Positions 4,177-4,857 of a DNA stretch of 64,000 bases are shown here, one piece after another. Every line of letters starts with the position of its first letter. The stretch's first letter is position 1. Source of the stretch: an uncultured Thermomicrobiales bacterium (lineage in GTDB: Bacteria > Chloroflexota > Chloroflexia > Thermomicrobiales > UBA6265). The position numbers and the translations under genes are program-made. The stretch spans positions 6,234 through 70,233 of the forward strand of contig CADCWF010000204.1 of the NCBI GenBank assembly GCA_902806345.1, given 5' to 3'. The notes beneath the pieces were generated by a model, which ran no database searches, was not told where the DNA came from, and saw only the letters and a program-made list of their open reading frames with translations.

Positions 4177-4857
4177 CTAGCGGTTTCGACCGGCCGCGTC
4201 GCGCCGCTCCCAGTCTCCACGGCTCGGAACCCGCTCGATCCGCGGCGTGGTGCGCTCGTCGCCGCCGTCGCGGGTGCCGCGGGAGGTGCGGCGGAGGGCA
4301 CATTGACCGTTGGAACGGCACCGGTGGTCGCTCGGGCAACAGCCGCTCGAGAAACCGCCGCGGCAGCACCGGGTGTTGACCGGGCAGCACCCCGGGCCGG
4401 CCGCCCCACCGCAGGAGGAGAAGCCGGAGGGGCAACCGCCGCCGCCACCGCCGCCGCCACTGACGCAGATGTTGCGCTCGCAGCGACCGTTGCAGCAGTC
4501 CCGGTCGTTGAAACAACCGAAGCCGTTGCTCTGGCCGGAGCCGCCACCGCTGCCGCTGACGCAGCGATTGTTGTCGCAGCGATCGGAGCAGCAATCGCTG
4601 TTTCTCCGACAGCCGAAGCCAATGTTCTGGCACGAACCGGCGCCGTTGTAAGCGCAGATGTTTCTGGTGCAGCGGCCGGAGCAGCAGTCCCCGTCCCGAC
4701 GGCACTCGAAGCCGGGGCTCGTGCAGCTCCGCGGCGCGGCCCCGGTAGCGGGCGGGGCGATCACCCCCGAGGAGGTGGCCAGGGCGCCGCGGCGGGTGGC
4801 CTTGCCGCGGATGCAGTCGACCGCGACCGCGAGGCGATCGAAGGATGTCCCGACCAT
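4177..4857 (-). CDS. Secreted cysteine-rich protein with tandem knottin-like C-C-CC-C-C modules and a Tat-like leader
   Basis: The internal ATG at 4857 is preceded by AGGAGG (taggaggggacccgtcATG). The leader is MVGTSFDRLAVAVDCIRGKATRRGALATSS. It is followed by three modules of the type CxxxGFxCRRxxDCCSxRCxxNxC separated by Gly-rich linkers, then a 10-Cys tail. GC3 is high in this frame. Confidence 0.75.
   Translation of the reverse strand: MVGTSFDRLAVAVDCIRGKATRRGALATSSGVIAPPATGAAPRSCTSPGFECRRDGDCCSGRCTRNICAYNGAGSCQNIGFGCRRNSDCCSDRCDNNRCVSGSGGGSGQSNGFGCFNDRDCCNGRCERNICVSGGGGGGGGCPSGFSSCGGAAGPGCCPVNTRCCRGGFSSGCCPSDHRCRSNGQCALRRTSRGTRDGGDERTTPRIERVPSRGDWERRDAAGRNR

Follow-up and report, generated by a model that had tools for sequence, protein, structure and literature searches.

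The DNA analysed here is a stretch of 64,000 nucleotides (hereafter, the window) from an uncultured Thermomicrobiales bacterium, and comes from a desert soil / soil-crust metagenome. On its minus strand, between positions 4177 and 4857, lies a gene for a protein of 226 residues rich in cysteine and glycine (28 Cys and 42 Gly, that is 12% and 19%), with few aromatic residues. Read from its amino terminus, this protein comprises a leader, three small modules with a knottin-like cysteine framework, a granulin-like tail and a charged extension. Knottins and granulins are prized as ultra-stable scaffolds, and they are known almost entirely from eukaryotes. The features of the gene are the following.

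4177..4857, minus strand: coding sequence (CDS), 226 residues, ATG at 4857, stop codon at 4177-4179
4867..4872, minus strand: AGGAGG ribosome-binding site, read from the sequence, 9 nt upstream of the ATG
4726..4857, minus strand: leader, residues 1-44, with a conserved FDRLAVAVD motif in the n-region, T-R-R-G-A-L (RR at 4789-4794) and a shortened hydrophobic region
4654..4725, minus strand: knottin-like module 1, CTSPGFECRRDGDCCSGRCTRNIC, regular expression C-x6-C-x5-CC-x3-C-x4-C
4561..4632, minus strand: knottin-like module 2, CQNIGFGCRRNSDCCSDRCDNNRC, same regular expression
4465..4536, minus strand: knottin-like module 3, GQSNGFGCFNDRDCCNGRCERNIC, same spacing, with Gly at the place of the first cysteine (CysI)
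4300..4434, minus strand: granulin-like module, residues 142-186, 10 Cys, C-x6-C-x7-CC-x5-CC-x7-CC-x5-C-x5-C
4180..4299, minus strand: charged, Arg-rich C-terminal extension, residues 187-226, with a weakly conserved E-R-x-x-P-R-x-E-R-V motif
4106..4142, minus strand: terminator-like hairpin, perfect 16-bp G+C-rich stem, about 35 nt past the stop codon

The gene and its orthologs

The CDS is a genuine gene, as witnessed by its ribosome-binding site, its codon composition, the hairpin that follows it, its identity to a database entry, its orthologs and the selection that it undergoes. The AGGAGG site is present, as the original prediction had it. The G+C content is 0.58/0.72/0.86 at the three codon positions, highest at the third, and the open reading frames (ORFs) that overlap the CDS in other frames show a mirrored profile or a flat one. 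At 70.8% G+C, the window contains long spurious ORFs in every region; large ORFs overlapping the gene, in other frames and on the plus strand, were rejected as mirror-frame artefacts of 71% G+C DNA. The hairpin folds, as RNA, with -55.6 kcal/mol (z = -5.4 against shuffles); a consensus terminator scan missed it because it has no U-tract. No sigma-70-like promoter was found at the gene by a promoter scan. A spacer of about 180 nt separates the gene from the upstream Peptidase_M55 gene and makes it look monocistronic. Finally, the product is 100% identical to the NCBI hypothetical protein AVDCRST_MAG59-3011 of an uncultured Thermomicrobiales bacterium. The architecture of the protein, its conservation and its predicted folds are the firm ground from which we proceed.

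Four orthologs were collected by different routes: a word-indexed search gave P0002, an exhaustive profile search P0003, a metagenome scan L005 and a search with the leader L004. P0002 is 53% identical to the window protein. In P0002, P0003 and L005 we find the same succession of an FD...RR leader, knottin-like modules, a tail with a ladder of CC pairs and a charged C-terminus with a motif like E-R-x-x-P-R-x-E-R-V, which is seen in the alignments with these three proteins. L004 has the same leader and modules; its contig ends before the tail, after at least five modules. The number of modules thus varies across orthologs (2, 2, 3, 3 and at least 5). The ratio of non-synonymous to synonymous substitution rates (dN/dS), computed by the Nei-Gojobori method against P0002 and rough, with dS about 1, is 0.34 overall, 0.15 in the leader, 0.35 in the modules, 0.21 in the tail and about 1.1 in the C-terminal extension. 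These values support purifying selection on the gene. A check of selection had been set beforehand, and the reading frame proved to be conserved.

L004, the closest relative, is syntenic with the window: a luciferase-like gene, a GNAT gene and a Peptidase_M55 gene precede the target gene. The proportion of synonymous differences (pS) between the two is a mosaic: it is 0.06 in the n-region of the leader, rises to 0.24-0.26 over the hydrophobic region and module 1 and falls back to 0.06 for modules 2-3, a pattern that suggests recombination among alleles. The last two modules of L004 (4985-5557 in ENA ERZ27286117) are identical, as protein, to modules 2-3 of P0002, from a sister sample. Taken together, this sharing of modules, the variable module number and the mosaic divergence suggest either recombination or an assembly chimera.

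Knottin-like modules and a granulin-like tail

A regular expression places the two complete modules and, behind them, a third copy without its first Cys, just as had been claimed. In the orthologs CysI is intact. Module 2 is identical, as protein, to the matching module of L004. The linkers are AYNGAGS, VSGSGGGSG and VSGGGGGGGG. Elsewhere in the six frames of the window the pattern occurs as a single loose copy, in a gene at 35357..35725 described below; it occurs in none of 100 composition-matched random windows, and is therefore far beyond chance. A recent duplication of modules at the DNA level was rejected, the modules being 65-68% identical in DNA; Tandem Repeats Finder detects nothing but Gly-codon microrepeats.

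The spacing of the cysteines gives loops of 6-5-0-3-4 residues. The first four loops of omega-atracotoxin-Hv1a are the same, and those of omega-conotoxin MVIIA, 6-6-0-3-4, are near. Profiles point the same way. Alone, module 1 matches UPF0506 at 23.3 bits (cut-off 23.2), Toxin_29, the PhTx spider-toxin family, at 22 bits and Conotoxin_I2 at 18.3 bits. The Pfam matches of single modules are to UPF0506, Toxin_29, Conotoxin_I2, Toxin_21, Toxin_23, Conotoxin and Toxin_18, with Dickkopf_N and LEAP-2 as the only ones outside toxin or knottin-type families. Residues 44-190 were modelled with AlphaFold2 from an alignment of 20 sequences; the model has a mean predicted local distance difference test (pLDDT) score of 73.7, with 76-90 in the modules (about 87-90 in module 1) and less than 50 at model residues 60-63 and 92-96, which are linkers. 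Each module is predicted to be made of a 3-10 turn and a beta-hairpin.

Compared with the PDB by Foldseek, the module model finds toxins of the inhibitor cystine knot (ICK) fold as its top matches, with target template modelling (TM) scores of 0.73-0.79, root-mean-square deviations (rmsd) of 0.6-1.0 Å and E-values of at least 0.48. U3-scytotoxin-Sth1a (5fzv) is matched with a probability of 0.99 and an rmsd of 0.6 Å over 25 columns, at 36% identity, and a hairpinless omega-atracotoxin-Hv1a (1hvw) with a target TM of 0.79, at 42% identity. Further ICK matches are nemertide alpha-1 (6ena), conotoxin kappa-SrXIA (9nvh) and maurocalcin (1c6w). The likeness to this group (1hvw, 5fzv, MVIIA; Conotoxin_I2, Toxin_29, Toxin_21, UPF0506) thus extends from the C-C-CC-C-C framework, with loops 6-5-0-3-(4), to 36-42% identity over 24-25 aligned residues and a predicted backbone within 0.6-0.9 Å. 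By contrast, the host here is a bacterium, a signal of the twin-arginine translocation (Tat) type replaces the endoplasmic reticulum signal and propeptide of the toxins, three copies stand in tandem fused to a granulin-like module, and whole-protein scores remain below Pfam thresholds. Framework, weak profile matches and predicted structure concur in supporting the knottin-like modules read by the original prediction, and the structure prediction that it proposed returned hairpin modules with ICK toxins as their top matches. A knotted topology is likely for these modules.

The tail of the protein is of another kind. After the Gly-rich linkers comes the 10-Cys region at 4300-4434 that had been announced. 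The Pfam family Granulin is the top or sole family match of three tails, at 11, 13 and 7.5 bits, short of its cut-off of 20.9; for the window tail, at 11 bits, it is the sole one. When a tail profile was run against 177,635 PDB sequences, the two best matches were granulin A (E 0.0091) and granulin C (E 0.011), the aligned motifs being G-C-C-P...C-C...C-C-P-x-G-[FY]-x-C. A tail-only AlphaFold2 model, which rests, as does the tail alignment, on three sequences, has a pLDDT of 76.1 and six strands that form three stacked hairpins. Its best Foldseek match is zebrafish granulin AaE (probability 0.92, TM 0.55-0.57, rmsd 3.5 Å, E 0.22, 33% identity), and the second is human granulin C.

The count of cysteines adds to this likeness. 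The tail of the ortholog P0003 displays the full 12-Cys granulin pattern, C-C-CC-CC-CC-CC-C-C. The window tail, with 10 Cys (C-C-CC-CC-CC-C-C), falls short of it, and the two cysteines absent from 10-Cys tails align to CysI and CysIII of granulin. In the published connectivity of granulin (I-III, II-V, IV-VI...) these two are bonded partners, so that their joint absence is what co-variation of paired disulfides would give, and it is consistent with a disulfide ladder. Pfam, PDB sequence and fold matches, with the 12-Cys pattern of P0003, thus make the 10-Cys tail granulin-like as far as predicted models go. With granulin and progranulin (PF00396; 2jye, 2jyt, 6cku) it shares the CC-ladder with its G-C-C-P and C-C-P-x-G/D-x-x-C motifs, a predicted stack of three beta-hairpins and the best PDB matches by sequence and by fold; with progranulin, the protein shares a layout as a string of Cys-rich beads. 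It differs by the lack of CysI and CysIII in the window tail (10 Cys), by Pfam scores of 7.5-13 bits against 20.9 and, in P0003, by a CysI-CysII loop of 2 residues against 5-6. Among the proteins and loci collected, the ladder motif is found in the Thermomicrobiales orthologs only, with a longer variant in the locus L105. A 2015 survey of progranulin evolution does not mention prokaryotes or bacterial granulin modules.

The presence of this tail raises the question of whether the six-Cys modules might be mini-granulins or half-granulins, unknotted, the whole protein being a bacterial progranulin-like pile of hairpin stacks. A 2024 study established that the C-C-CC-C-C framework can adopt a mini-granulin fold when its loops have 2-4 residues (PMC11035057). 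The framework folds either way, AlphaFold is unreliable on its isomers and the ICK fold has documented structural links with that of granulin (PMC11035057); besides, this polypeptide carries a granulin-like module at its end. Yet conotoxins of the mini-granulin fold have loops of 2-4 residues against 6-5-0-3-4 here, which places the modules in the ICK range by the very criterion of that study. Superposed on classical ICK toxins, the predicted modules deviate by 0.6-0.9 Å, and their Pfam matches are of toxin or knottin type, never Granulin. We deem this alternative quite unlikely.

The leader and the wider family

The leader, which starts MVGTSFDRLAVAVDCIRGKATRRGALATSS, is laid out like a twin-arginine export signal whose n-region is unusually conserved. 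The original prediction had called it of twin-arginine type, and this is borne out by T-R-R-G-A-L, with its invariant RR: after a polar n-region the window leader conforms to the motif [ST]-R-R-x-hydrophobic-hydrophobic. Twelve leaders were aligned, those of three genes of the window, of the orthologs, of L105 and L124, and of proteins from a leader-only search. D2, F6, D7 and RR are invariant in them, Val2 of the window protein excepted. Their consensus is M-D-x3-F-D-x-[LI]-x(7-11)-[ST]-R-R-x-[AL]-[LV], with a Gly/Ala-rich stretch behind it; no Pfam or NCBIfam model reaches its threshold on this leader. In the orthologs, the hydrophobic stretch after RR is rich in Gly and Ala, ends in an A-x-A-like motif and comes with basic residues near the cleavage region. 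Measured as the best 12-residue Kyte-Doolittle score, the hydrophobicity of this region is 1.35-2.35 apart from the window allele; that of a general secretory (Sec) signal in the same window is 2.77. Curated Tat models (TAT_signal, formate_TAT, PetC anchor) are weakly matched in other leaders, with 15.6 bits for TAT_signal in L124 as the best score (cut-off 22.7).

With Tat signal peptides (PF10518, TIGR01409) the family therefore shares a polar residue before R-R-x-hydrophobic-hydrophobic, a long n-region, a Gly/Ala-rich and mildly hydrophobic region and, in orthologs, basic residues near the cleavage site. It differs from them by its invariant M-D-x3-F-D-x-[LI] ahead of RR, and by passengers that are Cys-rich miniproteins instead of cofactor enzymes. 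Tat classically carries cofactor-loaded proteins. One may then wonder whether the protein of the window is a metallothionein-like polypeptide, binding metals through thiolates or buffering redox conditions and not disulfide-bonded; metal loading in the cytoplasm prior to export would fit a Tat-type leader. Its 12% Cys, 19% Gly, scarcity of aromatics and want of a hydrophobic core would suit this role, as would the soil-crust metagenomes from which it comes. However, the Cys spacing is rigidly conserved as a disulfide framework across very distant relatives, confident hairpin or knot-like models match disulfide-rich toxins and granulins, the joint loss of granulin CysI and CysIII is as expected from paired disulfides, and there are none of the His or CxC/CxxC clusters typical of metallothioneins. 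This makes a metal binder very unlikely.

What do these leaders carry? Leader-only searches yielded proteins of at most 86 residues, many of them fragments at contig ends, which are uninformative on large passengers. In their visible passenger parts Cys amounts to 8.1%, and 13 of 24 have at least two Cys; four proteins of the window with a Sec signal have 0-6 Cys. Those matches that are named (in the range P0064-P0094) belong to Thermomicrobiales or Chloroflexia. The FD...RR leader thus stands mostly on Cys-rich passengers, and it does look lineage-specific, at least in the sequences collected. Two of the matches from ENA metagenomes, P0080 (82 residues) and P0082 (86 residues), consist of an FD...RR leader and a single knottin module (UPF0506 in precomputed Pfam annotation), with a charged tail, R-R-D-R-E-R-E-R-E, reminiscent of the charged extension at the C-terminus of the window protein. 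In the six frames of the window, real FD...RR leaders are found in the target and in two other genes only; a loose form of the pattern gave matches within two long ORFs as well, both unrelated.

35357..35725, plus strand: second FD...RR-leader gene, 122 residues, 10 Cys, leader at 35357-35490, one knottin-like module at 35618-35692
56411..57349, plus strand: third FD...RR-leader gene, 312 residues, 20 Cys, leader at 56411-56560, a Cys-free stretch of about 190 residues to about residue 249, then a 20-Cys region

These are the genes that had been proposed, on the basis of leader style and extreme Cys content, to form a lineage-specific family with the target. The shared leader and the Cys richness stand; a single family does not. 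The second gene shares one module (residues 88-112, with weak Toxin_23 and Conotoxin_I2 matches), and the third has an unrelated Cys-rich end, with no Pfam or NCBIfam match for its leader, its Cys-free stretch or its 20-Cys region. Fragments of relatives of the third gene are named Chloroflexia (P0066).

Single-module proteins such as P0080 and P0082, the variable number of modules among orthologs and a beads-on-string layout with flexible linkers (pLDDT below 50) might mean that the polypeptide is a precursor, cut at its Gly-rich linkers into knottin and granulin-like peptides that would act as antimicrobials or signals. Progranulin works by such cleavage (PMC4527844). Against this, no recognizable processing sites, for example dibasic motifs, are present in the linkers, and no dedicated protease is conserved beside the gene, the M55 and S15 neighbours being variable and signal-less. 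We hold processing of this kind to be unlikely, noting that it would be compatible with the account of an exported binder developed in the last section.

The module itself reaches far beyond this lineage. An exhaustive profile search gave 62 cluster representatives at E<=1e-3, of which four at E<=1e-10. In most of these relatives the module is repeated in a long tandem array that follows a Sec or lipoprotein-type signal. Conotoxin_I2 is matched in 30 of 42 relatives (E<=0.01; best E 1.4e-19) and UPF0506 in 19 of 42. The NCBIfam Myxo_Cys_RPT and heavy_Cys families were tried as a cover and rejected, each matching one relative of the 42, at E>=1e-4. A scan of species-representative genomes with our own DNA pattern, GACTGCTGCTCSGGCNNNTGC, returned 120 loci, an estimated quarter to half of which are chance matches. 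Of these, 37 have at least two modules, nearly all in Myxococcota, cultured strains included; two further genes were found in another Thermomicrobiales metagenome-assembled genome. With the ortholog alignment, a scan of species representatives gave 181 pattern matches and no relative.

In Myxococcota we observe arrays of 6-18 modules, in L091 and L104 (Polyangium), in L082, L083 and L109 (Anaeromyxobacter) and in L063 (Minicystis rosea); the array of Polyangium sp. 6x1 has 18 modules, and no curated NCBIfam model covers these arrays. The Myxococcota repeat (lipo)proteins (Polyangium sp. 6x1, Anaeromyxobacter terrae SG22, Minicystis rosea DSM 24000), which were recovered both by the profile from the window protein and by the DNA pattern, share with it the tandem C-x3-G-x2-C-x4-D-C-C-S-G-x-C-x4-C. 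They differ in having 3-18 modules, Sec or lipoprotein signals (L-A-A/G-C) and Pro/Ala-rich linkers, and neither a granulin-like ladder nor an FD...RR leader; their identity to the window protein is 24-40%. An ORF of more than 2,613 residues, with four knottin-like modules near its C-terminus (e.g. CRNLTVSCQNDYDCCSGICTDGIC), was also seen in a metagenome-assembled genome labelled 'Candidatus Micrarchaeia archaeon' (L135, JBAZLG010000003.1), possibly through a binning error; according to the KNOTTIN database paper, archaea have no knottins.

The original prediction knew of no characterized bacterial family with such a layout and suggested one specific to the lineage. A family restricted to the lineage and without a bacterial counterpart is not supported: the same module forms long arrays in many Myxococcota and other bacteria, and surveys have recorded bacterial cases. 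The KNOTTIN database paper lists 'bacterial knottins', with no experimental structures, and papers on secreted cysteine-rich repeat proteins (SCREPs) record many bacterial ones, 69.5% of them with unrecognized domains. A SCREP is defined by a signal peptide and at least two tandem disulfide-rich domains, with no other domain type (PMC6262176). This is the architecture of the window protein, with its leader, of which the signal function is inferred, three knottin-like modules and a granulin-like one. Like SCREPs (the double-knot toxin DkTx; ScrepYard) it has a signal and then tandem, independently folded disulfide-rich domains on short flexible linkers; unlike it, the characterized ones are animal venom or inhibitor proteins. 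We found no paper on bacterial knottin arrays, bacterial granulins or knottin-granulin chimeras. The module type, as read from these comparisons, is neither lineage-specific nor wholly unrecorded, and belongs to an uncharacterized bacterial class, while the combination of knottin-like and granulin-like modules does look lineage-specific. What appears to be new is the granulin-like module, its combination with knottin-like modules in a bacterium and the FD...RR leader tied to Cys-rich passengers.

As for the neighbourhood, a multi-pass membrane protein of 646 residues with no Pfam match (1885-3825, minus strand) is encoded directly downstream of the target gene, and at the same position in L005 (3062-4543). 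Past it, on the opposite strand, come a histidine-kinase C-terminal region and a response regulator (289-1823). Signal-less peptidases adjoin Cys-rich FD-leader genes three times.

5038-5877, minus strand: Peptidase_M55, adjoining the target gene
35835-37652, plus strand: S15 X-Pro dipeptidyl-peptidase, adjoining the second FD...RR-leader gene
L005 14-1867: S15 peptidase, adjoining the L005 ortholog

We considered this adjacency as a functional link and set it aside, for the type of peptidase varies between loci, these enzymes have no signals and the neighbours at L105 and L124 are unrelated. It is probably coincidental.

A putative exported binder

How should this architecture be understood? 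The account that we favour, with a probability of about 60%, is that of an exported modular pre-protein, made of knottin-like modules and a granulin-like tail, acting as a stable multivalent binder. The Tat-type leader would direct the export of a hydrophilic polypeptide without a core, and oxidation would take place outside the cytoplasm. Work by Richter et al. in 2007 is said to have shown that Tat can carry small, hydrophilic, unstructured passengers, a tolerance that would suit a reduced, core-less polypeptide oxidized after export. The passenger would consist of independently folding, disulfide-stabilized mini-domains on Gly-rich linkers: three ICK-framework modules first, then a granulin-like beta-hairpin ladder – a granulin minus its CysI-CysIII bridge – and then the charged, poorly constrained C-terminal extension. 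Very stable and multivalent, it would most plausibly inhibit or antagonize a surface protein or an enzyme of another organism, whether intact or after cleavage of linkers as in progranulin. We infer that the window protein is one of a Thermomicrobiales repertoire of Cys-rich secreted miniproteins with FD...RR leaders, its module type falling within a wider bacterial class of tandem knottin-like repeats, apparently most abundant in Myxococcota.

A number of observations weigh against this account. Scored on the whole protein, no family comes up to its curated threshold: UPF0506 and Toxin_29, the only Pfam matches of the full sequence, have 19.6 bits for a cut-off of 23.2 and 15.2 for 25, and Granulin, on the tail, has 11 for 20.9. 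Foldseek E-values, for modules and tail, are all at least 0.2 because the domains are tiny, the modules having some 25 residues. AlphaFold2 mis-assigns disulfide isomers in the C-C-CC-C-C framework (PMC11035057). Neither PF10518 nor TIGR01409 matches the window protein, and no leader of the family reaches a threshold of the Tat hidden Markov models. At the loci compared there is no conserved functional partner gene, the 646-residue membrane protein alone being syntenic, in close relatives only. The window allele itself is peculiar. Val2 replaces the otherwise invariant Asp2. Compared with L004, a deletion of 16+2 nt (18 nt) has removed six codons of the hydrophobic core of the signal, and the hydrophobicity of the leader is 1.10 against 1.92-2.25 in the four orthologs, the lowest of all leaders examined. 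CysI of module 3 is a glycine codon, GGC, where L004 has TGC, and the mature protein is left with 27 Cys, an odd number, hence with an unpaired one. Finally L004 has an in-frame TAG just after module 1 where the window has TAC.

The family may be real and these changes signs of decay: the copy of the window, and with it that of its closest relative, would be poorly exported and mis-paired, an allele becoming a pseudogene. The ratio of the proportions of non-synonymous and synonymous differences (pN/pS), computed for the window against L004, goes in this direction: it is about 1 for the leader, 0.75 for module 1. However, the frame is open over its full length, the ribosome-binding site and the terminator hairpin are intact, and modules 2-3 differ from those of L004 by two synonymous changes and one non-synonymous change. 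Uncharged stretches of 19 residues can still act as Tat hydrophobic regions and, both sequences being from metagenome assemblies, the lesions may be strain variants or consensus artefacts. Decay is therefore on the unlikely side in our opinion; short of it, the three atypical changes (D2V, the six-codon deletion and CysI to Gly) may make export or folding less efficient for the window allele than for its orthologs.

With reference to what can be said at present, the models and comparisons support well a structural annotation, not a demonstrated function. The locus adds to the known picture a soil bacterium that joins knottin and granulin-like frameworks in one predicted exported protein, and a knottin-like module that is widespread in bacteria, above all in the predatory Myxococcota. 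If the account of an exported binder is confirmed, bacteria would be a source of knottin and granulin scaffolds, and the protein would be relevant to the debate on how the ICK and granulin folds are related. A further question would then arise, namely how a pathway known to export proteins in folded form moves one with 13-14 disulfides. A bolder proposal, which we find doubtful, is that Thermomicrobiales have a dedicated secretome of disulfide-rich miniproteins, marked by the M-D-x3-F-D-x-L...S-R-R leader, in which one polypeptide joins true ICK knots and a homologous granulin and is, in effect, a prokaryotic progranulin-like protein. Were this granulin truly homologous, it would be the first bacterial one and a natural bridge from the ICK fold to the granulin fold, and miniprotein folds that are seen as 'eukaryotic' may have bacterial roots or a history of horizontal transfer.

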